Shown here: piece after piece, positions 1 to 18,164 of the stretch
How positions within the stretch are numbered: position 1 is the first letter of the stretch
How the letters are laid out: every line of letters starts with the position of its first letter
Assembly (NCBI GenBank): GCA_049521895.1
Contig: JBEKOJ010000001.1
Coordinates: 631,114-695,113 of the forward strand
Direction of reading: 5' to 3'
DNA: 64,000 bases
Source of the DNA: Candidatus Saccharimonadales bacterium
Lineage (GTDB): Bacteria > Patescibacteriota > Saccharimonadia > Saccharimonadales > UBA10212
Translations under genes and position numbers: made by a program
The notes under the pieces: generated by a model
What the model was told of the DNA's origin: nothing
The model's database searches: none
What the model saw: only the letters and a program-made list of their open reading frames with translations

Positions 1-698
1 CAGGCGCCAAAGGCGTTACGGCCGTCCGGCTCACCGCTAAGTTTATGCCGGCGGTGCGAAAAATAGGTAGCATCGGCGCCGGTATCAATGTTTTCTACCT
101 CTATATTTTCAGCTAAAATCCCCGCAGCCTTCAACTCATCGAGCACGTAGCCAAACAGATTGATATGTATCCCATCGGGCTCGTTAGTAACGTAGCTGTT
201 CCAGCTTGCATCTAATTTTTTATCGCTTAAGTCTTGATCAACCAATCGGTAGGATTTTTGGCTGATAGACGGCCCAAAATAACAGGATATTTGTTCGGGA
301 GGGTAGCCAAGCGCATTGACTACTTTGGCTGGCAAATGCAATACCGCGCCGCTTGTGCCAACGTGGGCAAGAACCAAAATTTTTTGCCTGGGTACATAGC
401 AAACCAAGGGGATACAATCAGCAGCCCTAAGGGTTAAAAGGGCAGAGAAGCTTTTGGTGATCAGCGCATCGGCCTCCATTTGGAATAACCTTTCAGGGGT
501 CAGGGAGTCAACTTTTACGATGTTGTCTTTGCCGACTGCCGGCATATCATAGACCGTTTTGCCGGGGAATTTGGCCGTAAATTTGGCAAAGTTGGCATCG
601 GCGGTCGGGCCAAAGCTAGCCCGGGTATTACCCAGCGCCTTGCCGCTGTAGCCGACAATTACGCCGCCGCCAATTGTTTTTACAGTTACGGACTCCAT
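1..698 (-). CDS. pgeF: YfiH/PgeF family (DUF152, polyphenol-oxidase-like) protein, 3' end cut by window edge
   Basis: Absent from the ORF track because it runs off the window. The reverse-strand frame from the ATG at 698-696 reads MESVTVKTIGGGVIVGYSGKALGNTRASFGP..EADALITKSFSALLTLRAADCIPLVCY..LAHVGTSGAVLHL..TYFSHRRH. This carries the His/Cys/His pattern typical of YfiH/PgeF. Confidence 0.75.
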   Translation of the reverse strand, partial: MESVTVKTIGGGVIVGYSGKALGNTRASFGPTADANFAKFTAKFPGKTVYDMPAVGKDNIVKVDSLTPERLFQMEADALITKSFSALLTLRAADCIPLVCYVPRQKILVLAHVGTSGAVLHLPAKVVNALGYPPEQISCYFGPSISQKSYRLVDQDLSDKKLDASWNSYVTNEPDGIHINLFGYVLDELKAAGILAENIEVENIDTGADATYFSHRRHKLSGEPDGRNAFGA

Positions 699-781
699 AC
701 ATACATCCTACCACCCTATAAAGTAGGGCGCGGAAACGTACTTGCCGCTTTGGCTGCTCTTTTCCTAACTCGCAAAAATAG

Positions 782-789
782 TGGATAAT
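782..789 (+). promoter_or_regulatory. extended -10 promoter of polA (leaderless-type)
   Basis: TGGATAAT ends 7 nt before ATG 797, and there is no SD. Confidence 0.5.
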
Positions 790-796
790 AGTAGCA

Positions 797-3514
797 ATGG
801 TTGAGAGGCGCAAGAAACTAGCTATTATAGATGGAAAGTCAGTATTCTACCGAGGATACTATGCACTTCCAAATTTAAGCACTAAGGAGGGCGTGCCGAC
901 CGGCGGCGTCTATGGTTTTGCCACCATGGCGCTAGAACTTATCAAGCAGCTCAAGCCGGATTATGTTGCCGTAGCTTGGGACAAGCCCAAAACCAACATC
1001 CGCTCGCGCCTCAAGCTTTATCCGCAGTACAAAGCCGGCCGCAAACCGGCACCGCCGGATTTTTATACCCAAATCCCAGTCTTGCACGAACTACTAGAAG
1101 CCTTCGGCTGGCCCCTGTACGAACTGGATGATTACGAAGCCGACGATATCATGGGTACGCTAGCCGAGCAGGCGCGCAAAAAAGATATCGAAACTATGCT
1201 TATCACCTCTGATCTGGACGCTCTGCAGTTAGTCAATGGACACGTGAAGGTCTATGCGCTTAAACGCGGATTTTCTAATATCGAAGAATTCCATACGGAA
1301 AGTTTTGAGGCTAAATACGGCCTTAAGCCCGAGCAATTTTTGGACTTAAAAGCCCTAAAAGGCGATAACTCTGACAATATCCCCGGCGTGCCCGGTATCG
1401 GCGAAAAAACCGCCACCGAGCTGCTGAAGCAATACGACACGCTGGACGGCGTATATAAAAACCTGCCGGCAATTAAGGAAACTTTGCGCAAAAAACTAGA
1501 GGCAGGCAAAAAACTAGCTTACCTCAGTAAAAAACTGGCTACCATCTGGACGGATGCGCCACTGAAACTTAATTTAGCCGAGATGGACGGCACCAAAATC
1601 AACACCGAGCGGCTACGCGAGCTGCTGCAAAAGCTGGAATTCCGTACGCTGCTGGCCAACCTGCCGGCCAACATGCAAACCATCATTCCGCAAGAAGACA
1701 GAGTGGGCGGCGCCAAACTTAAAACCGGCAAAAATATCCTCATCGATTCCAATCAAAAATTGGCTGAGTTTTCCAAGGGTAATCCTTGGAAAAGGGACAT
1801 GGTTTTTGTCCACTCGCGCTCGGCAGGCAAGCACGGCCAGGATCCGCAGGTGTTGCTGCTCAGCGCAGATGACAAAACCGTCTACACCTTAGACCTAACC
1901 CAACTTTCCCCTGAGGCCGTCAAAAAATCTGTAACCTACAACCTACAACCTACAACCTCTCTAATTGGCTACGACATCAAATCTGATATAAAACTCCTCA
2001 AAAATCTGGGCATAGATGCCCAAAATGTTGGGCATGATGTGTTGGTAGGGGCATTCTTGATCAACCCACTAGTCCGCGCACAAAGTCTAACCGATCTGGC
2101 CATCGCCAACCTGGGCTACGAGGGCGCTTCGCTGGAAGATGTGCCAACGGATGATTTCATGGCTCGCGCGCCGGAATTTATTGCCGTTATCCAGCAGCTT
2201 TATAAAGAAGAAGTCAAAGCGCTGGATAAACTACCCAAGATAGCCAAACTGGCCAAAGACATTGAGTGGCCGCTCATCCCCGTGCTGGCCGATATGGAGA
2301 TGGCCGGTATAAAACTAGACACTGGCTACCTGAAGAAAATCTCCAAAGAACTTGATGGCGACATCAGCGACCTTGAGCAAAAAATTTATGGCCACGCCGA
2401 CCACGAGTTCAATATCAGCTCGCCGGCGCAGCTAGCGGACGTGCTTTTCGTTAAGCTCAACCTGCCCAAGGAGGGTATAAAAAAGACCAAAACCGGCTAT
2501 AGCACCGGCGCTGCGGAGCTGGAAAAACTGCGCGGCCTGCACCCGATTATTGATCTGATAACCCAGTACCGCGAGGCTACCAAACTCAAGAATACCTACG
2601 TTGACACACTGCCCGAACAGGTAGATAAAAACTCGCGCTTGCACACAACTTTTAACCTGACTATCGCCCAAACCGGCCGGCTTAGTTCCACCGATCCAAA
2701 TCTGCAGAATATTCCTGTTCGCACCGAGCTGGGCAAACGCATCCGCACGGCCTTTGTGGCAGAGAAGGGCAATGTGCTAATCAGCGCCGATTACTCCCAG
2801 TTTGAGCTGAGATTAGCCGCCGCGCTATCTGGTGATAAGGGCATGCTGGAAGCTTTTAACCGTGATGCCGACATCCATGTGGAAACCGCCGCCCAAATTT
2901 ATGGTATTCCGGCAGGAAAGGTTACTAAAGCCCAACGTAGCTCAGTCAAAGAAGTTAATTTTGGCATTATGTACGGCCTGGGCCCGCACGCCCTGAGTGT
3001 TAGCACCGGAATGAGCTTTGGTGAGGCCAAAAGATTTATAGACAAGTATTTTGAAATCCGCCCCAAGCTCAAACAATATATCGAACTGCAGCGTAAACTG
3101 GCGCTAGAACAGGGGTATGTAGAGACTTTGTTGGGCCGCCGCCGGCCGACGCCAGACGTAAAATCATCCAACTTCGTGGTGCGCGAGGCGGCTTATCGCG
3201 CGGCTGTGAATATGCCGCTGCAGGGTACGGCAGCCGACATTATGAAACTCGCAATGATTGAAGTCGATCAAAAACTACAATCATTCACCGAAACAAGAAA
3301 CAAGAAACAAGAAACAAGTCCAGTTCCCAGTTCCCAGTTCCATATTCCTCGCATCCTGTTACAAATTCACGACTCCTTAATACTGGAGTGTCCCGTGAAG
3401 GAGGCTAAGGAGATTGGAGAAATGGTAAAGGATGCGATGGAAAACGTTTACACCAAACTACCCGTCAAACTCAAAGCCGACATCTCGCACGGCGCTAACT
3501 GGGGAGAGCTTTGA
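797..3514 (+). CDS. polA: DNA polymerase I
   Basis: 905-aa ORF. N-terminal 5'-3' exonuclease motifs (GVPGIGEKTA). C-terminal family A polymerase motifs (DYSQFELRLAA, KEVNFGIMYG, QIHDSLILE). The extended -10 TGGATAAT ends 7 nt before the ATG. Confidence 0.95.
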   Translation: MVERRKKLAIIDGKSVFYRGYYALPNLSTKEGVPTGGVYGFATMALELIKQLKPDYVAVAWDKPKTNIRSRLKLYPQYKAGRKPAPPDFYTQIPVLHELLEAFGWPLYELDDYEADDIMGTLAEQARKKDIETMLITSDLDALQLVNGHVKVYALKRGFSNIEEFHTESFEAKYGLKPEQFLDLKALKGDNSDNIPGVPGIGEKTATELLKQYDTLDGVYKNLPAIKETLRKKLEAGKKLAYLSKKLATIWTDAPLKLNLAEMDGTKINTERLRELLQKLEFRTLLANLPANMQTIIPQEDRVGGAKLKTGKNILIDSNQKLAEFSKGNPWKRDMVFVHSRSAGKHGQDPQVLLLSADDKTVYTLDLTQLSPEAVKKSVTYNLQPTTSLIGYDIKSDIKLLKNLGIDAQNVGHDVLVGAFLINPLVRAQSLTDLAIANLGYEGASLEDVPTDDFMARAPEFIAVIQQLYKEEVKALDKLPKIAKLAKDIEWPLIPVLADMEMAGIKLDTGYLKKISKELDGDISDLEQKIYGHADHEFNISSPAQLADVLFVKLNLPKEGIKKTKTGYSTGAAELEKLRGLHPIIDLITQYREATKLKNTYVDTLPEQVDKNSRLHTTFNLTIAQTGRLSSTDPNLQNIPVRTELGKRIRTAFVAEKGNVLISADYSQFELRLAAALSGDKGMLEAFNRDADIHVETAAQIYGIPAGKVTKAQRSSVKEVNFGIMYGLGPHALSVSTGMSFGEAKRFIDKYFEIRPKLKQYIELQRKLALEQGYVETLLGRRRPTPDVKSSNFVVREAAYRAAVNMPLQGTAADIMKLAMIEVDQKLQSFTETRNKKQETSPVPSSQFHIPRILLQIHDSLILECPVKEAKEIGEMVKDAMENVYTKLPVKLKADISHGANWGEL

Positions 3515-4101
3515 AGTATCTTAAGGTCGGTTCGGAAGAGGAAATGGTGGCGATTTTCTTGAAAGCCGAATTAGACTCACCGCGTTTTAGTAAATTGATT
3601 AAGAAAAATTCTAAAAAATTTAATGTCCCTCTATCTGTTATTGAGCATCCAGATTTAAGAGATTCAAACCAAAATCAGCAAAGATCCAAGATACTTACAA
3701 GTTACCGTGGCTGGGGAACTAGAACTAAGATGTTTGAAAACTTCCCAAGCAAGCTACGTTGGGAATGGTGGGAGTTAAATAAATCAGATGTTTTAAATCT
3801 CTGCTACGTCGATTATTCATACTGGAACGAGCTGAGCAGAGGTAGCCATTTAGTAAAAGACGGGGTTCAGACAGTACGGGACGGTGTTGAAATTTATGGC
3901 GTTTCAAACCAGCAATATCTAGATTTGGCACAAAAGATAGACAAAAATGCCAGTTTGCCGCCACTAATTCTTGACCAGGCACGGTCCGAGGGACGATTAG
4001 AAATTATTGAAGGCCATGTCCGAGCTACTGCATTCGGTTTGTCCAAACAAAAGAACATTACAGTAAAAGCTCTAATTGGTAAGAACCGGGGCGAACTATG
4101 A
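3511..4101 (+). CDS. hypothetical protein (AT-rich accessory ORF; true start uncertain)
   Basis: 196-aa ORF overlapping the polA stop. No motif recognised with confidence. The LEIIEGHVRATAF segment is only vaguely ParB/Srx-like. Confidence 0.45.
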   Translation: MKYLKVGSEEEMVAIFLKAELDSPRFSKLIKKNSKKFNVPLSVIEHPDLRDSNQNQQRSKILTSYRGWGTRTKMFENFPSKLRWEWWELNKSDVLNLCYVDYSYWNELSRGSHLVKDGVQTVRDGVEIYGVSNQQYLDLAQKIDKNASLPPLILDQARSEGRLEIIEGHVRATAFGLSKQKNITVKALIGKNRGEL

Positions 4102-4113
4102 AAATAACACTTT

Positions 4114-4527
4114 ATGCGGCAGCAAATGATTAGGTTGGCGGGGTGCGTGATTACCGATGAGCGAGGCAGGGTTTTGCTACTGCACCGCAACAACGGTAAG
4201 CACACTCACTGGGAAATTCCTGGCGGCAAAATTGACCGTGGCGAATCGGCCGAAGAAGCGGCAATACGCGAAATCAAAGAAGAGCTAGATGTGGATGTGG
4301 TTATTGAGCGAAAATTTGGCGAGAAAGAATTTAAGATGGAAGACAGCACGCAGATGCACCATACCTGGTACTTGGCGCAGATAGTCAGCGGCAAGCCCAG
4401 AATTGCTGAACCGCAAACATTTGATGATTTACGCTACTTTTACATTGAAGAGTTAACCAAAATCCGCGATCAACTATCACATAGTGCAAAAAATTTCCTT
4501 GAAGTCTTTGAGCGCAGGTCAAAATGA
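4114..4527 (+). CDS. NUDIX hydrolase
   Basis: Nudix box GGKIDRGESAEEAAIREIKEELDV (GX5EX7REUXEEXGU). Confidence 0.85.
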   Translation: MRQQMIRLAGCVITDERGRVLLLHRNNGKHTHWEIPGGKIDRGESAEEAAIREIKEELDVDVVIERKFGEKEFKMEDSTQMHHTWYLAQIVSGKPRIAEPQTFDDLRYFYIEELTKIRDQLSHSAKNFLEVFERRSK

Positions 4528-4576
4528 TAAAAATTACACTATATGTAGCGGTATAATTAAAGTTCAGGAGGAAAGT

Positions 4577-5395
4577 ATGAAAATACCGAGTTTAGAGATG
4601 AATAATGGGCGGGAAATTCCGCAGATTGGCTTTGGGTTGTGGCGCAACACGGACGAAAAAGAATGCGTAGAATCAGTAAAGCTGGCGCTAAAAGCCGGCT
4701 ATCGCCACTTTGACGATGCCCAAGTTTATGAAAACGAGGAATATCTCGGCGAAGCACTAAAAGATAGCGACTTTAAGCGTGAGGAGCTATTTGTCACCAC
4801 CAAAATTGGCGTCAAAAACTTTGGCTATCATCGCGCATCAAAAAGTTTCAAAGTCTCGCTGGAAAAGCTACGGATGGAGTATGTAGACTTGCTGTTGCTG
4901 CACTTTCCGGTGCCGCTACTGCGTGGCAAATCTTGGAAAGCGCTGGAGGAAATCCACGCGGCGGGCCAGGCCAAAGCCATTGGCGTGAGTAATTACACTA
5001 TCCGCCACTTGGAAGAGTTGTTAAAGGACTGCAAAGTGCGGCCAGCCGTCAACCAGGTAGAGCTAAGCGTGGTTCTGCAACAGCCGGAACTAGTAGATTA
5101 CTGCAAAGAGCAAGGCATAATCGTAGAGGCTTACACACCTCTGGCAGAAGGCCACTTTTTCGATGACCCAACGCTCAAAGAAATCGCCAAAAAGCATGGC
5201 AAATCAGTGCCGCAAATAATGCTGCGCTGGTGCATAGATTACGGCGTGGTGGCGCTGACCAAATCCATCCACGAGGACCGCATCAAGAGTAATATCGACA
5301 TTTTCGACTTCAAATTAGATGACGCAGACATGAAAAAATTAAAAACACTGGACAAAAACTACCGCACCAACTGGGACCCCACCCACGTAGCATGA
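4577..5395 (+). CDS. aldo/keto reductase (2,5-diketo-D-gluconate reductase-like)
   Basis: ORF 4484..5395, with the start chosen at ATG 4577 after the AGGAGG RBS. AKR signatures present: GFGLW, AGYRHFDDAQVYENE, LLLHFP, IGVSNY. Confidence 0.85.
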   Translation: MKIPSLEMNNGREIPQIGFGLWRNTDEKECVESVKLALKAGYRHFDDAQVYENEEYLGEALKDSDFKREELFVTTKIGVKNFGYHRASKSFKVSLEKLRMEYVDLLLLHFPVPLLRGKSWKALEEIHAAGQAKAIGVSNYTIRHLEELLKDCKVRPAVNQVELSVVLQQPELVDYCKEQGIIVEAYTPLAEGHFFDDPTLKEIAKKHGKSVPQIMLRWCIDYGVVALTKSIHEDRIKSNIDIFDFKLDDADMKKLKTLDKNYRTNWDPTHVA

Positions 5396-5958
5396 AAGAA
5401 GAACCGGTAGACATCTTAGACGAGCAGATGAATACGACGGGTAAAACGATGCTGAAATCCGAGGCTCATAAAAAAAGTCTTCGTCATGGCGGCGCACATC
5501 TGTGGATCTACAATTCTAAGGGAGAAATTCTACTCCAACTCCGCCACCCCAGTAAAGTTATTCGTCCCAATGTTTGGGATGTTTCTGCAGCCGGGCATAT
5601 AAGCGCGGGGGATACCCCCGAAGAGACTGCAGTACGTGAAGCCGAAGAAGAGCTTGGCGTAAAGGTAGACCCAGATAAGTTTATTTTTATAGGGATTAAC
5701 AAGGTAGATGAACCTATGCCGGATGGTTGGACGCACCGGGGCTTCAATTGGTCATACGTGATAGAACTTGATTTGGATTTGAGCAAACTAAAGTTCCAAA
5801 AAGGCGAAGTCGCCGATATCCGCTGGGTTCCGCTGGACCAGTTCGAGGCCGAGATTAATGATCCCCAGCGATCTAAAAAATATACTCCTTCTCGCCTAGA
5901 GTTTTACCCAGTTATAATAGAAAGCATTCGGAAAGAATTAGGGCGACATCACAGGTGA
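5392..5958 (+). CDS. NUDIX hydrolase (Idi-like subgroup)
   Basis: Nudix box AGHISAGDTPEETAVREAEEELGV. ATGA overlap with the upstream gene. Confidence 0.8.
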   Translation: MKEEPVDILDEQMNTTGKTMLKSEAHKKSLRHGGAHLWIYNSKGEILLQLRHPSKVIRPNVWDVSAAGHISAGDTPEETAVREAEEELGVKVDPDKFIFIGINKVDEPMPDGWTHRGFNWSYVIELDLDLSKLKFQKGEVADIRWVPLDQFEAEINDPQRSKKYTPSRLEFYPVIIESIRKELGRHHR

Positions 5959-6503
5959 AAACACTCAAGATTTACGTAGCAGGGAAAATGTCCAAGCACT
6001 CCCATTTTGATTCGCATTACTGGCGCGACGATTTTTTGCAGCAGCTGGCAAAACTCACGGGCTTACGGTTTATTAGTTTTGATCCTACCAGCACCACCAA
6101 AGACTATACCTTTCCCGAATTGGTTTTTGGCAGCGACGTGCACATGATTTCACAAATTGATGTTCTGGTTGCTTACCTTAGTGATGACTTTAGTGTTGGT
6201 GGCTCGCAGGAGATCTTAATCGCCAAATATTATAAAAAGCCGGTTATTGCGCTGGCACCTTTTGGCGGTATATTCCATACCAAGAATAAGGAAGTTACCG
6301 GCCAGATCATTGAAGATTTTAAACATCCTTTTGTCTATTCCACCTGCGACGTTGTCTGCGAGACTGTAGGAGAAGTCGCCGAGGCGCTAAAAAACTTGGA
6401 CAAGATCAAACCCAAAACCCTGAAATTAATTGACGACGCCCACGCCAAATTCAACAAAAAACACCTAAAAACCAAAATGTACCAAGAACATCGTATTGGT
6501 TGA
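5955..6503 (+). CDS. nucleoside 2-deoxyribosyltransferase-like protein
   Basis: KIYVAGKM N-terminus and DVLVAYLSDDFSVGGSQEILIAKYYKKPVIAL fit the NDT-fold pattern. Called by motif only. Confidence 0.5.
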   Translation: MKTLKIYVAGKMSKHSHFDSHYWRDDFLQQLAKLTGLRFISFDPTSTTKDYTFPELVFGSDVHMISQIDVLVAYLSDDFSVGGSQEILIAKYYKKPVIALAPFGGIFHTKNKEVTGQIIEDFKHPFVYSTCDVVCETVGEVAEALKNLDKIKPKTLKLIDDAHAKFNKKHLKTKMYQEHRIG

Positions 6504-6516
6504 ATAAACCGATTGG

Positions 6517-7194
6517 TTAAGCGGCAAGGTCTTGGTAGGGCTTAGATGCAACAATTTTATGAAAGATTGGCTGCAAGCGGTTGACTCGATCGCCGGCTGA
6601 ACGGGGATGACCGCCATCTGGAATTTTTAATATTGGTAGGGAGCCTTCCTCATTTTGCCGCGCCGTATCCAGCCAAGATTTAGTCTCGGCAATAGCCAAT
6701 TCTGTCATGATTAGGCCGGCGTGCGTTAAGTTATCTCGTCTATCAATTTGACCTAGCATCGCGATATGCACCAGCCGGGCGCACACTTCGTAGGCTCTAT
6801 CCTCAGGAATTTTTATAACTATAACTTCGTTAGCAGCCACGCGACCCAATACTCTATCGATAGCCTTTGCTTGAACTTCCAACATATCGGCCGGGTGTTT
6901 TTCAATGGTCCCATCGGCCTCAGCCCTAAGTAATATTGCCGATGAAATTATCCCCGCAATATTTTTTCCCTGATTAAAAAAGGCCAAAGCGCTTACTTCT
7001 GGATCACCTTCAATATCGTATAAATTCCGTCTGGTAACATTACCATCATGCTGTGATACAGCTCGTCCATCCAACCAGCCGGCCAGCTGGCCTTTGTAGG
7101 GCGCCATTAACGAAGCCCAAAGCAGTTCTTTGCGCAACCACTCGCGGGGACTGAACTCGCCTTGGCCAGTAACTTCCACTCGGCTATCAGACAT
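6517..7194 (-). CDS. hypothetical protein
   Basis: 225-aa ORF with no recognisable motif. Lies downstream of the split phosphotransferase genes on the same strand. Confidence 0.6.
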   Translation of the reverse strand: MSDSRVEVTGQGEFSPREWLRKELLWASLMAPYKGQLAGWLDGRAVSQHDGNVTRRNLYDIEGDPEVSALAFFNQGKNIAGIISSAILLRAEADGTIEKHPADMLEVQAKAIDRVLGRVAANEVIVIKIPEDRAYEVCARLVHIAMLGQIDRRDNLTHAGLIMTELAIAETKSWLDTARQNEEGSLPILKIPDGGHPRSAGDRVNRLQPIFHKIVASKPYQDLAA

Positions 7195-7315
7195 AAGTCA
7201 CGATATTATAATATAAACACCAGTCCCTTACAAGATGTAGAACAGGCCAAGAGTTTATTAATGGCAGACATAATACTTAGACTGGCAACTTTGGCATCGT
7301 TTTATAATTAAAAAT

Positions 7316-8413
7316 TTAGGCTAGCTTAACAAGGCCAGCGTCGGCATCAACAGATACGATCTGGCCATTTTTGAGTACTTTGGTGGCATTGCCAGCGCCC
7401 ACAATGCAGGGCTTTTTAAGCTCGCGGGCTACAATCGCCGCATGCGACAAAATCCCGCCTTGGTCAGTTACGATCGCGGCAGCTTTTTGTATCAACGGTA
7501 CGTAATTTGGTGTCGTGACCTCACAAACTAGCACCGCGCCCTCCGGGAAATCTTCATCAACACCGTCCGCCTGGACAATTCTCACCGGGCCCTTGGCTTT
7601 ACCCGGGCTGCCAACCAGGCCATAAATAAGCGCGTTAGCATCTGTTTTTGGCTCCTCAATTATTATATTTGAATACATTTTTCCCAAGGCCGGGCTATAG
7701 TCTATAAACCATGTTCCAAGCGACGAATTGGTAGTTTCAAAATAACCCTCCAGATAATTATGTGTGAAGGTCGCCCTAAGCTTTTTGCTGAGCGTAGTTT
7801 GCTTGGTAGCGTCCGGAACATATAGGTAATCAGCCAAGGATTTTAGGTGTTCCAGAGCCTTTTTGTCGGCTGGCGCAACCATCCATTTTTTAAAATCGTA
7901 CCTAAAGACATGCGGCCGGTTTTTATCATGAAAGCCTTGAGTCAATTGATGATGTCCACCCCAGATTATCTCGCCTTGGATGCCATGTTTATTAACGATA
8001 AAAATGGTCGCCCAAGAATAGTCGGGTGGGTGGGGGATAAAATCCGCGCGGTATTTTGCCGGCTTAATGTCTTGCTCTAGGAACCACTTGTAGGCATTCT
8101 TTATAGATTTGCCGCGCATACGCAATTTCGGCAAATCATCTTCTTTGGGGATCAAACGCAGGGCACACAACTCATCACCATGTTTCCGCAAATATTTAAT
8201 GAAACCAGCTGTTTTATCAGCTAAATCCACTGCCTCAAACTGTGTCGGCTTATCAAATGGTAAGCCAATAACATCGTTGAGGATTTTTAATCGCTCACGC
8301 TTGTCGTTATCCTCGCGTCTGATCGCTTTGGCGTCTTTGTGTTTGATATCTTCCAACCACTCAGTCAGGGATTTCTGAGTTTTTAGCAGTTCGGCTAATT
8401 TCTCGTCCGCCAT
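7316..8413 (-). CDS. PEP-utilising enzyme, mobile (swivel His) domain protein with unknown N-terminal domain
   Basis: The C-terminus VTDQGGILSHAAIVARELKKPCIVG is the PEP-utilizers phosphohistidine motif. An AGGAGG RBS lies 9 nt upstream of the ATG. Confidence 0.8.
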   Translation of the reverse strand: MADEKLAELLKTQKSLTEWLEDIKHKDAKAIRREDNDKRERLKILNDVIGLPFDKPTQFEAVDLADKTAGFIKYLRKHGDELCALRLIPKEDDLPKLRMRGKSIKNAYKWFLEQDIKPAKYRADFIPHPPDYSWATIFIVNKHGIQGEIIWGGHHQLTQGFHDKNRPHVFRYDFKKWMVAPADKKALEHLKSLADYLYVPDATKQTTLSKKLRATFTHNYLEGYFETTNSSLGTWFIDYSPALGKMYSNIIIEEPKTDANALIYGLVGSPGKAKGPVRIVQADGVDEDFPEGAVLVCEVTTPNYVPLIQKAAAIVTDQGGILSHAAIVARELKKPCIVGAGNATKVLKNGQIVSVDADAGLVKLA

Positions 8414-8448
8414 AAGTTCAATCCTCCTAGAGTTTTTAGCATATCATC

Positions 8449-9180
8449 TCAACCGAGGGCAGTTACAGGGCGGCTCTGCAGAATATAAAGCTTGCCTTGG
8501 GCTATAGTCCACTCCACATCAACAGGGAAGGCAAAGTATTTTTCTAGCCGTTTTACCGCATCACTAACCTCTGTTATTTGCTTATCAGTAAGCATGTTTT
8601 TCTTGCCTTTGGTGTGTATTTCTATAACTTGGCCAGTTTTCTTATCAATAATGTAACTGTCCGGCGTTACCTCACCAGATACTAACGGTTCAGCCAATCC
8701 GCGGACGACCTCGATTATCATATGATTACGATTCTTGGTAACCGGATGCACGGAAAAGGCGACACCGCTAACTTCACTTGGAATCATAACCTGCACAACG
8801 ACTGCCACAGCGCCGGTTTGTAAGCCTTTTTGCTTGGCATAAGCCCTGGCTCGCGGAGAATTGGCAGAACCCCAGCATTTTTTAACTGCATCTAATAGAT
8901 GAGAACGATCTATACTCAAAAAAGTATCCAGCTGCCCGGCCCATGCCGCGCCTTTAGCATCTTCTGCTACAGCGCTTGAACGTACAGTTACCTGTCTGGC
9001 GCCCAGACTGTCGAAATCGTCCAAAATTGCTTTTTCCAGCTCGCGGCTCATTTTTTGGGAAGCCTCAGCGGTCACCACAAATCCTGGCGGTACGTCAAAC
9101 CCACTTTTTATGAGTTGGCTCAACGCTCGTGCTTTCCCGCCGACTAAAGAAATGTCTTCGACTTGCCCCAAGGGAACCAT
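8449..9180 (-). CDS. pyruvate phosphate dikinase-type ATP-grasp (PPDK_N) domain protein
   Basis: VGGKARALSQL..VTVRSSAVAEDAKGAAWAGQLDTFL..VAVVVQVMI..GVAFS is the PEP synthase/PPDK N-terminal nucleotide-binding domain. The ORF track starts at 9228. I prefer ATG 9180 (MVPLG) after GGAGGAG. Confidence 0.8.
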   Translation of the reverse strand: MVPLGQVEDISLVGGKARALSQLIKSGFDVPPGFVVTAEASQKMSRELEKAILDDFDSLGARQVTVRSSAVAEDAKGAAWAGQLDTFLSIDRSHLLDAVKKCWGSANSPRARAYAKQKGLQTGAVAVVVQVMIPSEVSGVAFSVHPVTKNRNHMIIEVVRGLAEPLVSGEVTPDSYIIDKKTGQVIEIHTKGKKNMLTDKQITEVSDAVKRLEKYFAFPVDVEWTIAQGKLYILQSRPVTALG

Positions 9181-9279
9181 CAATAACTCCTCCATATGGA
9201 TATCATACCAGCCCCCAAAAGGTTGCAAGCACGGAAATATTATTGTATTATAACCATCGTTAAGAGAGTTTTGTAAGGA

Positions 9280-9867
9280 ATGAACCGCGCCGTTTTTGGC
9301 TTTTTAGCTTTTATTATCTTGATCATACTGATCGTGGTCTTGATTTTTGGTGGTGGTAAAAAACCGGCAAATAATTCTGGTCCTTCTCTGATGCCGTTGC
9401 CAAACTACTCTACCACTGATGCTACTACCAGCATGACCATAGACGGGCAGGTAAACGGTGACGACATACACCGGGCTATCCGTATTACCGTTAGCCAAAA
9501 CCAGCGCGAGCTGGATATCATCGGCGGCTACAACGGCAACATTATAAGCAGCCAAACTTTTGGCAACAATCAGGCTGCTTATGCCGTCTTTCTGCGGGTT
9601 ATCAACAACTATGGCTTTTTGCAAAAGCTCAAGAACACCAAGGCGCCGGCTGATGAGCGCGGCCAATGTCCGCTAGGCAACCGTTATATCTTTGAGTTGG
9701 ACCAAAACGGCTCTACACTTTCGCGCCTGTGGGCTTCTGATTGCAGTACCACCGATGCCACTTTAGGCGGCAACTCCCAGACTCTACAAGCCCTGTTTGA
9801 GGGGCAAATCACCCAGTACCAAACCCTGACCGAGAACGTCAACCTCGGCTCCGACCAGCTGTTATAG
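9280..9867 (+). CDS. membrane-anchored hypothetical protein
   Basis: 195 aa with a single N-terminal TM helix (FGFLAFIILIILIVVLIF). Confidence 0.6.
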   Translation: MNRAVFGFLAFIILIILIVVLIFGGGKKPANNSGPSLMPLPNYSTTDATTSMTIDGQVNGDDIHRAIRITVSQNQRELDIIGGYNGNIISSQTFGNNQAAYAVFLRVINNYGFLQKLKNTKAPADERGQCPLGNRYIFELDQNGSTLSRLWASDCSTTDATLGGNSQTLQALFEGQITQYQTLTENVNLGSDQLL

Positions 9868-9874
9868 TGGAGGC

Positions 9875-10753
9875 GTGAGCAACACTCAAACAGCGGGCAA
9901 AATCCTGCAGGATGACGAAGATTTCCTAGTAGAAGTTATTGATTGGCAGGGACGTCTTGCGGTCAGAAAATCTGTAAAGACAACAACCCGCCCCGAGAGG
10001 CTAGAGCGGCTCAAAAACGAAGCTTATGGCCTGAAGTATTTTACAGATTTGGCAGCTAAGCATCCAGAAATAAACGTTTATGTACCAATACTCTACGAAG
10101 TTAAACCCGAGTTTATCGTTACCGAATATATAGAACAGCCATCGGTCGGTGATAAACCGCAAAATTTAAATAAACTGGCGCGTTTGCTGGCCCAAATCGA
10201 CCACATCGAGCCGTACGGCAAGGCCAAAATCCACCCTAGCTTTGATTACATGGATATTCGTAAAAGATTTCCGCTTTGGTATATGCCTACAATAAACTCA
10301 AAGCCAAAAAAACTACTTACTGATGCTCAGATTAGCAGAGTCAATAAAATTTTGGATAGATACCAGCCATATTTGACCCCGCGGATTGCCCATGGCGACT
10401 TGTCGCCGTATTTTCATGCCTTTATGATGCCAAATAACAAAATCGCTTTTGTTGATTTAGAAGTTTTTACGCCGCGCGGTGCGCGCTATTACGACGTCGC
10501 CCGCTGCTACACCCGCCTGTACGAAAAAGCCCCCTCAACAGATGCACCAAAGCAATTTTTATCGGCCTTTATGCAATATGCCGATGAGATACAACACCGG
10601 AATGAACAACTTATGGCCATCTTAATCCAGCGAACAGTCGGCATGCAACGTGACGCAGGCATTGATAAAACCAAGGGCAGAGATTACAGAAACCGCGCTG
10701 CCGAACTGCTAGACTTAGTCTTGCAAAACAAATTGGAGCTGTTGAAAGCATGA
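9875..10753 (+). CDS. aminoglycoside/choline-kinase-like phosphotransferase family protein
   Basis: Brenner-type motif IAHGDLSPYFHAF followed by FVDLE. GTG start. Confidence 0.6.
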   Translation: MSNTQTAGKILQDDEDFLVEVIDWQGRLAVRKSVKTTTRPERLERLKNEAYGLKYFTDLAAKHPEINVYVPILYEVKPEFIVTEYIEQPSVGDKPQNLNKLARLLAQIDHIEPYGKAKIHPSFDYMDIRKRFPLWYMPTINSKPKKLLTDAQISRVNKILDRYQPYLTPRIAHGDLSPYFHAFMMPNNKIAFVDLEVFTPRGARYYDVARCYTRLYEKAPSTDAPKQFLSAFMQYADEIQHRNEQLMAILIQRTVGMQRDAGIDKTKGRDYRNRAAELLDLVLQNKLELLKA

Positions 10754-11334
10754 TTAAAGCGATTATTTTCGATTGTTTTGGAGTTTTGAGCACTGAAGGC
10801 TTTGGGTCATTTCGAGATAAATACTTGGTGAATGATCCAGATAGGCGCCAGCAGGCAAATAAAACCATGGACGAGCTGAATGCCGGGCGGATACCATACG
10901 ACGAATTTGTTAAAGAACTGGCCAGGTTAGCTAATGTTAGCGAACAAACCGTTGGAGAATACCTAAGCGAGAATAAACCCAACGAGCCCCTCTTTGACTA
11001 TATACGTCAAAACCTCAAGCCCCATTACAAAATTGGCATGTTATCTAATGCAGGGGACAATTGGCTTGAAGAATTATTCGAACAAAGGGACATTAAGTTG
11101 TTTGATGATATCGTACTATCTTACAAATTTGGAATGATTAAGCCTCAGTCAGATATCTATACCCTAGCAGTCAAAAGGCTTGGTGTAGCGTCAAGTGAAT
11201 CCATATTTATTGATGATCAGGAAAAGCACTGCGAAGGGGCACGTGCAGCCGGCATACGAGCCATTTGGTACAAGGATTTTTCGCAGTTTAGGTTTGAGTT
11301 AGAAAAAATTCTAGCCCCCAGCGCGGATAACTAG
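10750..11334 (+). CDS. HAD-superfamily hydrolase (subfamily IA)
   Basis: Motif I IIFDCFGVL, motif II MLSNAG, motif IV FIDDQEKHCEGARAAG. Confidence 0.8.
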   Translation: MIKAIIFDCFGVLSTEGFGSFRDKYLVNDPDRRQQANKTMDELNAGRIPYDEFVKELARLANVSEQTVGEYLSENKPNEPLFDYIRQNLKPHYKIGMLSNAGDNWLEELFEQRDIKLFDDIVLSYKFGMIKPQSDIYTLAVKRLGVASSESIFIDDQEKHCEGARAAGIRAIWYKDFSQFRFELEKILAPSADN

Positions 11335-11550
11335 CCTCTGCTTTAAATCACAGGCTTCAATAAGATTCTGGCGCTCCAGCTGGAGAGTGGCCGCTAGGGC
11401 AGAGCCGCGTACACTAACGATCAACGCTCCGCGCTCCAGCTTAACGGTGCACGGTCGCTTGTAACGCCGCATCACATAGTCTTTAACCACTGTTATTTCA
11501 TCCGGCCGCGCGAAGTTTTTCTTGCTCAAAATATCCTGCAGACTGTCCAT
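11311..11550 (-). CDS. DUF721/DciA-like small protein
   Basis: The ORF track extends to 11622 through a heptad repeat array. I prefer the start at MDSLQDIL. The pattern LERGALIVSVRGSALAATLQLERQNLIEA resembles DUF721. Confidence 0.5.
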   Translation of the reverse strand: MDSLQDILSKKNFARPDEITVVKDYVMRRYKRPCTVKLERGALIVSVRGSALAATLQLERQNLIEACDLKQRLVIRAGG

Positions 11551-11569
11551 TACACACTTCCTACGGGGG

Positions 11570-11657
11570 CAATGGACAAATGGACTAATGAACGAATGGA
11601 CAATACATTGAACATTGAACATTGAACATTGAACATTTTGGACTCCATGAGTCCAAG
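11570..11657. repeat. heptad-periodic AT-rich intergenic repeat block
   Basis: CAATGGACAAATGGACTAATGAACGAATGGACAATA followed by (CATTGAA)x4 at 11605-11632 and the hairpin GGACTCcatGAGTCC. Confidence 0.8.
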
Positions 11658-11669
11658 TATAATGGAGGT

Positions 11670-11692
11670 ATGCCGGAGTTACCAGAAGTAGA
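11670..11692 (+). pseudogene. relic duplicate of the fpg start (MPELPEV) with its own -10 box
   Basis: ATGCCGGAGTTACCAGAAGTAGA, against the real start ATGCCCGAACTCCCAGAGGTTGA at 11883. All differences are synonymous. TATAAT at 11658-11663 ends 6 nt upstream. Confidence 0.7.
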
Positions 11693-11849
11693 CCCGGCAG
11701 TAGACTTTCGAGTCAGCTCGTCGTCAGATGAGATATTTATTCGATGTCAGCGCTTAATTAATTGCCTAGGACTTACAGCCACCGATATTCGTGCTGACGA
11801 GCTGAAACTTACATGCAAAGTCGAATAATCTCGAAAGCTCACTGCCGGG
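11693..11849. mobile_element. 157-bp palindromic MITE-like element (family 1, long form) behind a relic fpg start
   Basis: Termini are CCCGGCAGTAGACTTTCGAGTCAGCTCG ... AGTCGAATAATCTCGAAAGCTCACTGCCGGG. They are identical to the termini of the 18186-18342 copy in the opposite orientation. Flanked by TAGA/TAGA. Confidence 0.8.
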
Positions 11850-11864
11850 TAGAGACAGATGGCT

Positions 11865-11873
11865 TGATACAAT
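11865..11873 (+). promoter_or_regulatory. extended -10 promoter of fpg
   Basis: TGATACAAT ends 9 nt before ATG 11883. Confidence 0.5.
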
Positions 11874-11882
11874 ATAGAAACT

Positions 11883-12818
11883 ATGCCCGAACTCCCAGAG
11901 GTTGAAACTGTCAAACAAGGTCTGAGCAAATTTTTGCCCAAGCTTGTAATTAAAGATGTCTGGCACGACTGGCCAAAGGGTTTCCCAAACGCGCCAGCAG
12001 ACGTAGCACGCTTTATGGTGGGTGCATCAATCACAGATGTTAAACGGCGGGCAAAAGTCTTAATTATTGGCCTCTCGAGCGGCTACAGCTTGGTTATCCA
12101 TCTTAAAATGACCGGCCAGCTGGTTTTTGTCGGCTCCGCCGACAAGCTAAAAGCTAACAGCTCAAAGCTTAAAGCTGAAGAAAAGTTTGGTGGTGGTCAC
12201 CCTACAAGTTCATTAGTCAATGATTTACCGGATAAAAGTACAAGGGTAGTTATTGATTTCACCAACGGAGCCAAACTTTTCTTCAACGACCAGCGTAAAT
12301 TTGGCTGGATGCGCCTGCTACCTTCAGTGGAAGTGCCGGAGATTGATTTTATGAAAACCGTCGGTCCCGAACCGCTGGACGATGATTTTACAGCTGGTAA
12401 ATTCATAGAGTGCATCCGTGGTCGCAAAAACAGCCCTATCAAGGCAGTTTTGCTGGACCAAAAAGTCCTGGCTGGAATCGGTAATATTTACGCCGATGAG
12501 TCGCTATTTGCTGCTAAAATCCATCCGTTGACCAAAGCAAGTGCCATCTCTCGCACCAAGCTTGTAGCGTTGCATAATGATTTGCGGTCCATACTACGGA
12601 CAGCCATAAAAAAAGGCGGCAGTACAGATAGGAATTACGTTAACGCCGAGGGCAAAAAGGGCAGTTACATCCAGTTTGCACAGGTGTTTAGGCGGGAAGA
12701 ACAGCCGTGCCCACGCTGCGGTACCACCATCCAAAAAATAAGAGTGGCGGGTAGAGGAACGCATATATGTCCCCGATGTCAGAAAATCAGGGACCAGAAG
12801 ATAAGGGACAAAAAATGA
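11883..12818 (+). CDS. mutM: formamidopyrimidine-DNA glycosylase
   Basis: N-terminal MPELPEVETV with catalytic Pro2. H2TH region LLDQKVLAGIGNIYADESLF. C-terminal zinc finger CPRCGTTI..CPRCQ. Confidence 0.93.
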   Translation: MPELPEVETVKQGLSKFLPKLVIKDVWHDWPKGFPNAPADVARFMVGASITDVKRRAKVLIIGLSSGYSLVIHLKMTGQLVFVGSADKLKANSSKLKAEEKFGGGHPTSSLVNDLPDKSTRVVIDFTNGAKLFFNDQRKFGWMRLLPSVEVPEIDFMKTVGPEPLDDDFTAGKFIECIRGRKNSPIKAVLLDQKVLAGIGNIYADESLFAAKIHPLTKASAISRTKLVALHNDLRSILRTAIKKGGSTDRNYVNAEGKKGSYIQFAQVFRREEQPCPRCGTTIQKIRVAGRGTHICPRCQKIRDQKIRDKK

Positions 12819-13729
12819 TAGTAACTTTAGCGGGCAATAACAGCTATCTGTTGCGACGGCGGCTGGACGAATTAATCGCCGAGTTTGTTAACAAACAAGG
12901 CGAGCTGGCACTAGAGCGGATTGATGCGACAGAAACCGACTTGCAGGCCATTTTAGATGCCGTACAAAGCCTGCCATTTTTGTCAAAACGCAAAATGGTC
13001 GTGCTGCGCGACCTATCGGCCAATAAGCGTGCAGCGGAGGCCATTGAACAAATAATTAACTCAATTTCGGATACCACTGACGCAGTATTTTACGAGCCCG
13101 TAACAGATAAGCGGACGACTTTTTATAAAATCCTGAAACAAAAAACTAAATTCGAAGAGTTCGATGAACTGGCGCCGCGCGAACTGCCAAAATGGCTGGT
13201 GAATGAGGCCAAGAAAACCGGTGCGCAACTATCGCTTACTGAAGCCAATTACTTGGTGGAGAGACTTGGTCCGAACCAAACTATGTTGGCCAGCGAGCTG
13301 CAAAAATTAATAACTTATATCCCAGAAATTACACGCGAAAATATAGATTTGTTAACTGATCCCACGCCGCAGGGAAGAATTTTTGATCTGCTGGACGCAG
13401 CTTTCGGCGGTGATAAAAAACGTGCCCTAAAACTCTATGAAGAGCAACGTGCGCAGCGCGTGGAGCCGCAAGCAATCTTGGCGATGGTGGCCTGGCAACT
13501 GCAACTATTGGCTTTGGTAAAACACTCTGGCAACCGCCTGGCGGCGGACGTGGCCAGAGACGCAGGCCTTAATCCCTATCCTGTGACAAAGGCTAAAAAC
13601 CTGGCCGCAAAAATCACCGAGTCCGAGCTTAATAAGATGGTGGATGAGGCTCTGGATATAGATTGGCGCAGCAAAACCACGTCAATTGACCTGGACGAAG
13701 CCCTCAAAACTTACATAACGACCCTTTAA
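12815..13729 (+). CDS. holA: DNA polymerase III subunit delta
   Basis: The start at ATG 12815 forms an ATGA overlap with fpg. Length and pattern (LQAILDAVQSLPFLSKRKMVVL, ..LGPNQTMLASELQKL) are typical of HolA. Confidence 0.8.
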   Translation: MIVTLAGNNSYLLRRRLDELIAEFVNKQGELALERIDATETDLQAILDAVQSLPFLSKRKMVVLRDLSANKRAAEAIEQIINSISDTTDAVFYEPVTDKRTTFYKILKQKTKFEEFDELAPRELPKWLVNEAKKTGAQLSLTEANYLVERLGPNQTMLASELQKLITYIPEITRENIDLLTDPTPQGRIFDLLDAAFGGDKKRALKLYEEQRAQRVEPQAILAMVAWQLQLLALVKHSGNRLAADVARDAGLNPYPVTKAKNLAAKITESELNKMVDEALDIDWRSKTTSIDLDEALKTYITTL

Positions 13730-14031
13730 AAGGAAAAACCCGCCGCCAGCTTATGCTGGCGACGGGCGATGGAGTTGTTCCGGATGGTGGCGAGATCCTT
13801 GCGGAGCGCGACCAGGTAGTCGTAGAAGGGAATGAGGACATACCCCACTGCGAACCGGATCTTGCTCGGCGGTCTTCTGCGCCGCCGCTTGTGGGGGCAG
13901 ACCCCCAAGTTCATGCTGCAACCGAAGTGCTCGTCATCGAAGAGATCGAAATGCACGATCGTCCTTTCTGCCGGTGGACAACACCTCTGGGAAAACTCGG
14001 GAATCACCCCGAACCCCAGAGAAGTGAACAT
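13726..14031 (-). CDS. GC-rich orphan ORF (101 aa), possibly a captured foreign gene fragment
   Basis: Two sampled 60-nt lines are about 60-63% GC. There is a strong G/C preference at third codon positions in this frame only. No RBS. An intrinsic terminator follows. The product was not recognised. Confidence 0.35.
   Translation of the reverse strand: MFTSLGFGVIPEFSQRCCPPAERTIVHFDLFDDEHFGCSMNLGVCPHKRRRRRPPSKIRFAVGYVLIPFYDYLVALRKDLATIRNNSIARRQHKLAAGFSF
13729..13766 (-). terminator. intrinsic terminator (minus strand) after the rpsT/GC-rich ORF unit
   Basis: The reverse strand reads CCCGTCGCCAGC-ATAA-GCTGGCGGCGGG followed by TTTTTCCTTTT. Confidence 0.75.
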
Positions 14032-14073
14032 TGTAACATCTTATGCTTAAAAATGCAATAGGTTTCAGGATAA

Positions 14074-14448
14074 TTACTTATGGGTTTTGCCGGCAGATTT
14101 AGCGGGTTTCCCGGCAGTAGATCTTCGCGTGGCTTTGCCAGCATCCGCTTTGGCGGGTGGTCGCGAAGGCTCACTGCCGGGTTTGACACCCGCGGCTTTG
14201 GCTTCTCTGGCGATCCTTGATTTATAGCGTGCCGCTTTATTCTTATGGATCACAGCTTTTTTGGCGGCTATATCTATAGCTTTGACCGCTACTAGGGCGG
14301 TTTTGGCTATCTGGTCAGCCTTTTTGCCATCAACAGCTTTGGCAAAGGCCTTAAGCGCATTACGCAAGTCGCGTTTGGTGCGTGCATTGCGGGCACCAGC
14401 CTTGGCTGTCACCTTCACACGTTTTTTAGCAGATTTAATAATTGGCAC
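14074..14448 (-). CDS. rpsT: 30S ribosomal protein S20 carrying an in-frame 72-bp element insertion in its C-terminal tail
   Basis: MPIIKSAKKR..VIHKNKAARYKSR is canonical S20. The tail ..GVK-PGSEPSRPPAKADAGKATRRSTAG-KPAK.. is encoded by the palindromic element at 14110-14181. Confidence 0.93.
   Translation of the reverse strand: MPIIKSAKKRVKVTAKAGARNARTKRDLRNALKAFAKAVDGKKADQIAKTALVAVKAIDIAAKKAVIHKNKAARYKSRIAREAKAAGVKPGSEPSRPPAKADAGKATRRSTAGKPAKSAGKTHK
14110..14181. mobile_element. 72-bp palindromic MITE-like element (family 1, short form) in frame within rpsT
   Basis: CCCGGCAGTAGATCTTCGCG..CGCGAAGGCTCACTGCCGGG. 67/72 nt identical to the reverse complement of the 51908-51979 copy. Flanked by TTT/TTT. 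Confidence 0.85.
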
Positions 14449-14571
14449 GGTCGTTAACTATAACAGATAGGGAACTCTTTTGTCAAAACCTAAAGTTACC
14501 TCTTGCAACACGATAACGGTTATGTTACTCTGAGCGGCAGAAGTCACCTCACAAAAACTTCAGCCAAAATA

Positions 14572-14670
14572 AAAATGCTCAATGGACAAATGCTCTATGT
14601 TCAATGAATGGCCGATGAGGCGATGTAGCGATGCATTGCTTATTGTTCATTTGTCGCATTTGTCCATTGC
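14572..14670. repeat. heptad-periodic AT-rich intergenic hairpin
   Basis: Perfect 14-bp inverted repeat CAATGGACAAATGC (14580-14593) / GCATTTGTCCATTG (14656-14669). AATG/CATT recurs every 7 nt. CAATGGACAAATG also occurs at 11570. Confidence 0.8.
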
Positions 14671-14688
14671 CTCCGAAAGAGGTACCTA

Positions 14689-16269: not shown

Positions 16270-16285
16270 CTGGTCTAAACCAAAT

Positions 16286-16405
16286 TTGACATCTTACAAT
16301 TCACACTTAACATTTATTTAGCATTTGTCATTTCACAGGTGTTAATGCTACTTGAAAGATGTAAAATAAATGCTCAATGATAAATGAAAAGTGCTAAATG
16401 CTTAA
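16286..16405. repeat. heptad-periodic AT-rich intergenic hairpin
   Basis: The left arm is ..ACATTTATTTAGCATTTGTCATTTCACA. The right arm is AGATGTAAAATAAATGCTCAATGATAAATGAAAAGTGCTAAATG. It shares CATTTGTCATTTCACA with 18606 and AAATGCTCAATG with 14572. Confidence 0.8.
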
Positions 16406-17297: not shown

Positions 17298-17347
17298 TTG
17301 CAAAAATAGCCAAAGTGTGGTAATATTGGTAATATTAAAGAATTAAA

Positions 17348-18153: not shown

Positions 18154-18164
18154 TGGCCGCAAGA

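Follow-up and report, generated by a model that had tools for sequence, protein, structure and literature searches.

How do tandem arrays of seven-nucleotide (7-nt) units come to lie within conserved housekeeping genes, and what allows them to stay there? The question is raised by a 64-kb stretch (hereafter, the window) of a metagenome-assembled genome (MAG) from an uncultured Candidatus Saccharimonadales bacterium (Saccharibacteria/TM7), in which such heptad arrays occur in polA, fpg, truB, pilD and ychF. A preliminary description of the window had listed these tracts as apparent in-frame insertions and attributed them to the process that builds the intergenic heptad arrays. A sequence check together with Tandem Repeats Finder (TRF) located every one of the listed tracts, and the peptides quoted from them (TETRNKKQETSPVPSSQFH, TTNYKLQTTNY, TTNYQLLQ and VTYNLQPTT) are correct translations. 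The PolA, Fpg, PilD and YchF proteins of the window are identical to NCBI MAG proteins (MGA3150644 and neighbours), and its TruB differs from the NCBI TruB in the annotated start only (255 vs. 252 amino acids, aa); the closest species representatives share ~72% PolA identity with the window. Assembly artefacts do not explain the tracts, since identical tract-bearing proteins recur in as many as 33 contigs (NCBI, JGI, ENA and Logan assemblies).

Period 7 is the sole enriched repeat period in the window. Exact tandem tracts of at least three units numbered seven at period 7 and zero at each of periods 4-6 and 8-15. Under a looser array criterion (17 of 21 lag matches, with 50 triplet shuffles as the control), we detected ten regions at lag 7 and seven at lag 14, compared with 0-1 at other lags and 0 in the shuffles. 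Seven to eight of the ten strongest lag-7 regions are intragenic, including those in polA, fpg, truB and pilD, and methods including TRF yielded ~19 period-7 arrays in the 64 kb, built from differing units and both intergenic and genic. The same signal is present in relatives: 1.42 Mb of other Saccharibacteria contained 27 regions at lag 7 vs. 0-5 at most other lags, which at 19 per Mb is ~eight-fold below the density of the window (156 per Mb). One 22-kb locus (L030, CAZHJG010000007; L numbers denote loci or contigs compared with the window) carries six lag-7 regions and is denser than the window, so the heptad load varies strongly between Saccharibacteria lineages.

Slippage in 7-nt steps is directly visible in polA (DNA polymerase I, 905 aa; 797-3514, + strand), which matches Taq Pol I in the PDB (phmmer, E = 2e-160), is named DNA polymerase I by NCBI and holds two tracts. 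Site 1 (1933-1958, + strand) is a plain direct array, (AACCTAC)x3.7 by TRF, that encodes VTYNLQPTT, whereas site 2 (3290-3345, + strand) is a cassette of (GAAACAA)x4 followed by (CCAGTTC)x3 (TRF: x4.1 at 3290-3318 and x3.1 at 3320-3341). Two independent metagenome contigs are each short of a single unit, each variant resting on one contig. The first (L087) is free of mismatches to window positions 1-13380 and differs by one 7-nt gap, the loss of a GAAACAA, which truncates PolA at 858 aa, ahead of the catalytic HD motif; the second (L173) lacks one AACCTAC at site 1, and its PolA stops at 386 aa. These are frame-shifting copy-number polymorphisms of the repeat, of the kind that characterizes contingency loci, and they bear out the earlier proposal that slippage also operates in coding DNA, with survival where the frame is kept. 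Copy-number steps of 21 bp had been predicted as well, and none were seen; the variants are single 7-nt steps and one whole-cassette replacement.

The two polA tracts differ in how they relate to the gene. At site 2, the cassette forms an insertion of ~20 aa directly before the QIHDS motif, which coincides with an exact 19-aa gap relative to Taq and is missing from most of 80 Saccharibacteria PolA. Independent heptad inserts occupy this site in other lineages, with the units CAGCTCA/CAGCTAA (L005), CAGTTAA (L010) and CAGGTTA (L015). Site 1 lies in a length-variable loop in which the window has the same length as its closest relatives, which carry other heptads there, and five further unit types were found in this loop (L001, L012, L037, L061 and L066). 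On these alignments, site 1 is not a clean insertion. The polA linker is also occupied by different heptad units in different lineages. Folding further separates the two tracts: site 1 forms no hairpin (z = -0.35 sense, -1.4 antisense), and site 2 folds strongly as the antisense strand (-25.9 kcal/mol, z = -5.0), through G-U pairs, but not as the sense strand (-1.3 kcal/mol, z = +1.0).

In fpg/mutM (311 aa; 11883-12818, + strand; PDB match to MutM, E = 1e-52), the insert (12127-12185, + strand) comprises a left-junction palindrome, TTGTCGGC-TCC-GCCGACAA (12127-12145), and five heptads with an AGCT core (12144-12185), recognized by TRF as degenerate AAGCTAA x4.7 at 12144-12176. The heptads constitute a 14-aa (42-nt) insertion that is missing from most Saccharibacteria Fpg. 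The window protein is 26 aa longer than Geobacillus MutM, and most of this excess (KFGGGHPTSSLVNDLPDKS) is a clade-wide segment rather than heptads. We found independent inserts at the same site in six further loci (L012, L009, L024, L030, L033 and L010), with heptad arrays in or beside the site in the first four, and the left junction is a palindrome formed from flank plus insert in 5 of 7 insert-bearing lineages. In addition, a perfect 15-nt inverted repeat (12176-12285, + strand; arms 12176-12190 and 12271-12285; z = -4.8) joins the 3' end of the insert (EEKFG) to conserved downstream codons (KLFFN) 80 nt away. Among 63 Fpg genes, an inverted repeat of 15-16 nt occurs only in the window and L012, which both have an insert ending in EEKFGG and whose Fpg proteins are 75% identical, against a median Watson-Crick run of 4 nt.

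The insert in truB (255 aa; 16398-17165, + strand, with the NCBI start at 16407; PDB TruB matches and Pfam TruB_N) has three parts. The cassette (16461-16581, + strand) consists of a stem-loop H0 (16461-16488), inverted heptad arrays of CAGAGCT (16494-16514) and CTCTCAG (16533-16563), and a junction hairpin, CGCGCACC-AAA-GGTGCGCG (16563-16581), all on the + strand. It adds ~23-28 aa between TSHDVV and GHTGTLD relative to solved TruB structures; this segment measures 25 residues in typical bacteria, 30-35 in plain Saccharibacteria forms and 53 in the window. The inserts had been expected to be lineage-specific, and this does not simply hold, as most of the 120 closest TruB homologues carry one at the same site, hypervariable in sequence but patterned. 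TruB forms of 222-230 aa without it also exist. The AlphaFold2 model (mean pLDDT, the predicted local distance difference test score, of 86 overall and 44-59 across the insert) predicts a disordered surface loop.

The truB insert folds as a hairpin, as previously suggested (z = -4.4 sense, -4.2 antisense). At its right junction, the last insert codons pair with the V-R/K-V-G codons of the gene, and a Lys codon always forms the loop. We found compensatory changes in this stem between lineages (CGCGCACC/GGTGCGCG, CCTTCACC/GGTGAAGG and CCACGCGAATC/GATTCGCGTGG; L176, L178, L009 and L001), and the corresponding association at the protein level is strong (27/2/4/33, p = 5e-12, with phylogeny not corrected for). 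A metagenome scan with the TruB alignment for insert-bearing truB DNA returned mostly relatives of <=55% identity without the insert, L091 being the sole useful one. Two further TRF arrays in truB, at 16749-16776 (unit AAAAAGC) and 16924-16953 (unit AGGTTAC), were rejected as inserts; they are weak (72-80% matches), and the protein aligns normally there. The conserved strand VTVHRLQVTEY is encoded by the latter, whose unit is also that of the L015 insert at polA site 2 (CAGGTTA), a match due either to chance or to an overwritten segment.

Allele turnover is evident in pilD (prepilin peptidase, 286 aa; 49641-50501, + strand; Pfam A24_N_bact and Peptidase_A24), which has ~14 aa more than short Saccharibacteria forms. 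Its cassette (49709-49802, + strand) has a left arm of AGTTGAT-type units x2.4 (49720-49736) and a right arm of (AAACTAC)x5 (49756-49790), and forms a hairpin with z = -2.0 sense and -5.1 antisense. We compared the window with a sister strain (JGI Ga0427934_0000036), in which these 94 nt are replaced by an unrelated 118 nt; the other tracts are unchanged, and the pil cluster (window 39641-60501) otherwise shows 5 mismatches and 0 gaps in 20.8 kb (~99.98%). A 61% identical orthologue (L175, GCA_040879175.1) has GAGCYNA x5 on the left and CAACTAC x5 on the right, of which the left arm matches the left arm of the sister strain (z = 11.5) and the right arm matches the right arm of the window (z = 12.4). 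The two L175 arms are not mutually complementary (z = -1.1), whereas the left arm of the window is complementary to its right arm (z = 3.9), and the right arm of the sister strain is complementary to its left arm (z = 5.0). On the simplest reading of these sequences, one arm of each allele was overwritten by an inverse copy of its partner arm.

The right arm of the pilD cassette also tempers the claim of lineage specificity, since orthologues of just 58-61% identity (L174 and L175) have kept the NAACTAC x5 array at the DNA level. Within the array, 7 of 9 codons with conserved amino acids are identical in the three lineages, compared with 18 of 120 elsewhere in pilD (p = 1.3e-4). This conservation beyond protein-level selection could reflect a nucleotide-level function or concerted evolution of a unit read in three frames. 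The peptide TTNY(K/Q)L(Q/P)TTNY occurs in six PilD lineages. A second pilD array, of AGCTCTN type (50165-50199, + strand; TRF and lag criterion), lies in a region without length change.

A related unit occurs in ychF (361 aa; 33870-34955, - strand; PDB match to YchF, E = 6e-107), where a degenerate NAACTAC array (34383-34411, - strand; sense GAACTAC TAACTAC CAATTAC CAACTAC) encodes LTTNYQLLQ, with TNYQLLQ found in three YchF lineages. This plain direct array forms a hairpin on neither strand. It had been taken for an insertion as well, and proved length-neutral relative to Haemophilus influenzae YchF and +3 aa relative to most relatives. Thus, orthologue alignments uphold the reading of the tracts as in-frame insertions for polA site 2, fpg, truB and pilD, and not for ychF and polA site 1.

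In many of the cassettes, a pair of inverted heptad arrays folds into a hairpin. The preliminary description had noted a hairpin for truB only, and this restriction does not stand: inverted arrays are general, junctions are palindromic, and polA site 2 folds on the antisense strand. By the palindromic criterion, truB, pilD, fpg and, on the antisense strand only, polA site 2 fold, whereas polA site 1 and ychF do not. Of 44 insert junctions, 12 (none of them at polA site 2) are bridged by a perfect stem of >=7 bp, as are 0.7% of control positions within these genes. The conserved gene sequence next to an insert is often repeated at the junction as an inverted copy, as in truB and fpg. Judged from the aligned orthologues, the inserts are not private to this genome, and other Saccharibacteria have different units in the same loops. 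Cassette likenesses also cross genes and lineages, linking window polA site 2 with the L009 truB insert (z = 11.6), the truB cassette of the window with the pilD cassette of the sister strain (z = 11.9), and the polA insert of L005 with the fpg insert of the window (z = 9.7). Two patterns were considered and set aside. A general antisense hairpin bias (19 of 30 coding arrays, p = 0.03) is weak and confounded by A/C-rich sense strands, so no general claim is made of it, and the absence of stops from the units is trivial for an intact open reading frame (ORF), with 70% of random 7-mers being stop-free anyway.

We propose, with a probability of roughly 45%, that the tracts are heptanucleotide microsatellites like the cyanobacterial short tandemly repeated repetitive (STRR) sequences, that they slip in 7-nt steps and are rearranged by snap-back or template-switch copying, and that those in genes persist where they are in frame, free of stops and in a tolerant loop. 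A replication or repair process slipping in 7-nt steps would make the arrays and alter their length. Snap-back or template switching would copy nearby sequence in inverted orientation, giving rise to hairpin cassettes and to inverted flank copies at the junctions, as the anatomy and the two pilD alleles suggest. In coding DNA, the survivors would be in-frame, stop-free products in tolerant, disordered loops, and such a filter would lead a few loops of PolA, Fpg, TruB and PilD to be reoccupied by different units across lineages. The encoded peptides would most likely be passengers rather than functional domains, and each tract, once present, would act as a built-in frameshift hotspot.

Several points weigh against this proposal. 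The proposal names no enzyme or pathway, and template switching is read from the anatomy alone. The arrays are stable between strains differing by 1-6%: relative to the sister strain, polA has 94.4% nt identity and both of its tracts keep their length and almost all of their sequence, and the truB region (window 6395-18771) has 98.8% identity and an indel in no array. The pilD cassette replacement is possibly a recombination between old alleles, and the recurrence of cassette types in unrelated genes and lineages could indicate transfer rather than de novo origin. Moreover, some features, namely the synonymous-site conservation of the pilD NAACTAC array and the retention of the truB junction stem through compensatory changes, look selected rather than neutral.

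Comparison with known systems places the arrays near several of them. Heptanucleotides are the most abundant long class of simple sequence repeats in many prokaryotes, with polymerase slippage as the proposed cause (Mrazek 2007 via PMC4679880; PMC4692102), and published heptamers are strongly biased to non-coding DNA (PMC4692102). The window shares with cyanobacterial STRRs the tandem 7-nt units in several scattered families, runs of ~3-5 copies, tandemly inverted arrays, a frequent position just upstream of genes and slippage as the proposed origin, and differs from them in its host (Saccharibacteria/Patescibacteria) and in having most of its strongest arrays in genes. The window unit TCCCAGT is one base from the STRR1 unit CCCCAGT, and canonical STRR1, (CCCCAGT)x3 with <=3 mismatches, is absent from the window. 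In marine Beggiatoaceae, TAACTGA direct repeats lie mostly upstream of start codons, a minority being read through in ORFs in the stop-free orientation and mostly at protein termini, and their origin by mobility or slippage is discussed (MacGregor 2015, PMC4679880). The L010 polA unit CAGTTAA and the reverse complement of TAACTGA differ by one base, and (TAACTGA)x3 with <=3 mismatches has 0 matches in the window. Unlike the Beggiatoaceae repeats with their single dominant unit, the arrays described here belong to many unit families, and those in genes occupy internal loops of conserved enzymes and recur at orthologous sites.

Rickettsia palindromic elements (RPEs), reportedly described by Ogata et al. 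in 2000, are palindromes lying in frame in conserved protein genes, where they appear to be tolerated in surface loops as passengers. These elements are ~100-150 bp long, form dispersed families of many copies whose sequence is conserved, and lack a heptad substructure. The window inserts at polA site 2, fpg, truB and pilD resemble them in being in frame in conserved genes, and differ in being unique in sequence, built of 7-nt units and bounded by junctions that copy local flanks. Contingency loci (Haemophilus, Neisseria) usually have 1-5-nt units, or heptanucleotides in the promoter or 5' untranslated region, in many copies, and affect surface or restriction-modification genes with proven reversible switching; the likeness here is that polA is twice seen frameshifted, with a truncated product, after losing one unit, and the difference is that the host genes are housekeeping genes and the arrays short. 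Insertions from polymerase-theta-type end joining and bacterial quasipalindrome template switching begin or end with reverse-complement copies of adjacent sequence and make imperfect inverted repeats more perfect. The window inserts likewise begin or end with reverse-complement flank copies. Such snap-back or quasipalindrome events are usually short, one-off mutations, and to our knowledge neither a 7-nt periodic expansion nor a phylum-wide recurrence at the same protein loops has been described for them.

An extended version of the proposed origin would unite slippage with function. A hitherto undescribed Saccharibacteria process combining 7-nt-register slippage and snap-back would repeatedly install, overwrite and resize hairpin cassettes in permissive loops of essential genes, and some cassettes (the pilD NAACTAC array and the truB stem) would be kept at the nucleotide level as structured DNA or RNA, or as frameshift switches. 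We regard this as possible, with the odds against it. A reading that starts from function alone, in which the cassettes are selected nucleic-acid elements and the peptide a by-product, appears somewhat improbable. The elements would be RNA stem-loops tuning mRNA stability, translation or antisense transcripts, or heptad arrays that bind protein. Such a role would account for the synonymous-site conservation in pilD, for the compensatory changes around a constant Lys-codon loop in truB, for a perfect fpg inverted repeat kept in two lineages, for the strong z-scores and for the strand asymmetry, with antisense hairpins at polA site 2 and pilD; the intergenic arrays, too, form hairpins just upstream of start codons. 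However, unrelated units occupy the same loop across lineages, the arrays of polA site 1 and ychF fold on neither strand, the L175 pilD arms are non-complementary, and short TruB, PilD and Fpg forms dispense with inserts altogether. The antisense bias is the weak, composition-confounded one described above, and the covariation evidence comes without control for phylogeny. An Rfam scan at gathering thresholds found two tRNAs as the sole matches in the whole window, with no cassette matching a curated covariance model.

It is unlikely that the cassettes are miniature mobile palindromic elements inserting in frame, of the RPE kind or resembling miniature inverted-repeat transposable elements (MITEs) or REPINs, with a trans-acting enzyme or gene conversion between cassettes as the means of spread. 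Mobility would fit their hairpin architecture and in-frame position in housekeeping genes, the swap of the pilD cassette in a near-identical background and the cassette types common to different genes and lineages, and genuine small palindromic elements do exist in this genome (a 72-nt repeat, and a 44-nt insertion that differs between strains). Nevertheless, no two heptad cassettes are copies of each other in the ~64-kb window or the fetched loci, where their likeness is confined to the unit level, and neither target-site duplications nor conserved termini were seen. The annotated neighbours include no transposase or REP-associated tyrosine transposase (RAYT), the sole related gene being a XerC/D-like integrase. 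The junctions, finally, copy the local flank, which argues for local templating rather than an imported element.

Selection for the peptides themselves, as flexible linkers or interaction loops, with the DNA periodicity reflecting only their mode of origin, seems to us very unlikely. It would agree with inserts that are always open and in frame, with peptides that recur among PilD and YchF lineages and with the retention of the truB insert in most relatives. On the other hand, each site is hypervariable in sequence, disorder is predicted for the TruB insert, many orthologues function without inserts, and conservation reaches synonymous sites, which peptide-level selection does not explain. Two further candidates were discarded. 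Removal of the inserts at the RNA level (splicing or bypass) is unlikely because inserts of many lengths are all in frame and stop-free, and diversity-generating retroelements were dismissed, as neither a template/variable repeat pair nor a reverse transcriptase was seen and the variation shows no adenine specificity. An assembly or sequencing artefact or chance periodicity is barely credible, for although the data are short-read metagenome assemblies with each -7-nt variant on a single contig, the proteins recur across assemblies, tracts of 26-35 nt are far below the assembly k-mer, shuffles lack a period-7 excess, and homologous tracts exist in independent genomes.

Our literature searches turned up no earlier description of heptads in Saccharibacteria or Patescibacteria. 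What appears to be new is the phylum, the predominance of arrays lying within and in frame with genes for housekeeping enzymes, the recurrence at orthologous loops, and the hairpin and palindromic-junction anatomy with its allele turnover. The findings extend heptanucleotide repeats, long known from cyanobacteria and a few proteobacteria, to Patescibacteria, and to positions within housekeeping genes rather than between genes. The repeated hits on orthologous loops are natural replicates, with dozens of independent inserts, two alleles and single-unit variants, from which the generating mechanism (the slippage register and snap-back copying) may be read. The findings also call for caution in annotating and aligning proteins of the candidate phyla radiation (CPR), since a hypervariable low-complexity loop in a conserved enzyme may be a passenger at the DNA level. 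Natural populations could, in addition, become heterogeneous through frameshift hotspots in polA and other genes of this kind.

Outside genes, the arrays at five places in the window are mostly inverted pairs lying ~0-250 nt upstream of start codons. Inverted heptad/octad arrays forming a hairpin (14580-14669; z = -4.4) precede by ~20 nt the gene that starts at 14689, and inverted heptad arrays (ATTTAGC..., TAAATGC x5) at 16316-16402 (z = -2.6) are immediately upstream of truB. Further inverted heptad arrays (ATTTxAC, AAATGTA) lie upstream of pnp (18592-18716; z = -4.7). The remaining two are upstream of pilC (47617-47728; a 14-mer x2.4, AATGCCA x3.4 and AATGGTA x4.6, by TRF and the lag criterion) and of fpg (11571-11637; AATGGACA x4 and ACATTGA x4.7; z = -3.3). 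They share an AATG/CATT core (TAAATGC, AAATGTA, AATGGTA, AATGCCA, ACATTGA and AATGGACA), and the coding arrays belong to other unit families. At the position orthologous to the array upstream of pilC, L175 has (AGAATCA)x4 and (TTCATGC)x3 (7564-7642), and the same locus carries a gene for a 23S rRNA intervening-sequence protein (8929-9285) between pilC and a pilin gene. In L019, a 723-nt ORF contains inverted heptad arrays of GTAGACA type and its complement TGTCTAC type (20187-20216 and 20363-20401), ~150 nt apart.

Whether the (CCACTCT)x3.6 tract (51871-51895, + strand) is genic depends on the start codon of a pseudopilin gene, on which gene callers disagree: with the ATG at 51860 as start, the tract falls in a long prepilin leader, and otherwise it immediately precedes the gene. 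Adjoining it within that leader is one copy of a 72-nt palindromic dispersed repeat, whose two copies (14110-14181, - strand, in rpsT; 51908-51979, + strand) are 93% identical and show a compensatory change in the inner stem. The rpsT copy is in frame in a ~40-aa C-terminal extension of S20 (124 aa vs. 83-88 aa in solved structures). This repeat is a genuine RPE-like in-frame element, distinct from the heptads.

The sister strain differs from the window in further respects. Its divergence is mosaic, with 94.4% identity in polA, 98.2-98.8% over 4.5-18.8 kb, and 99.96-99.98% over 18.8-27.1 and 39.6-60.5 kb (L088, L082 and L172), which suggests recent recombination between two lineages. Upstream of pnp, at window ~18770, the sister strain has a 44-nt palindromic insertion (TCGGCCGCACAAATTTCG...GAAATTTCGGCGGCC; L172 12375-12418) that the window lacks, and this is the sole indel of >1 nt in 20.7 kb of that comparison. 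Downstream of polA (window 3511-4544 vs. L088 12715-17426) lies a variable island, where the sister strain has ~4.7 kb of different genes, encoding a metallophosphatase, an HD hydrolase, a GIY-YIG protein, a helix-turn-helix (HTH) and M78 peptidase pair, an aldo-keto reductase and a dCMP deaminase, and the window has just a 196-aa ORF and a NUDIX gene.

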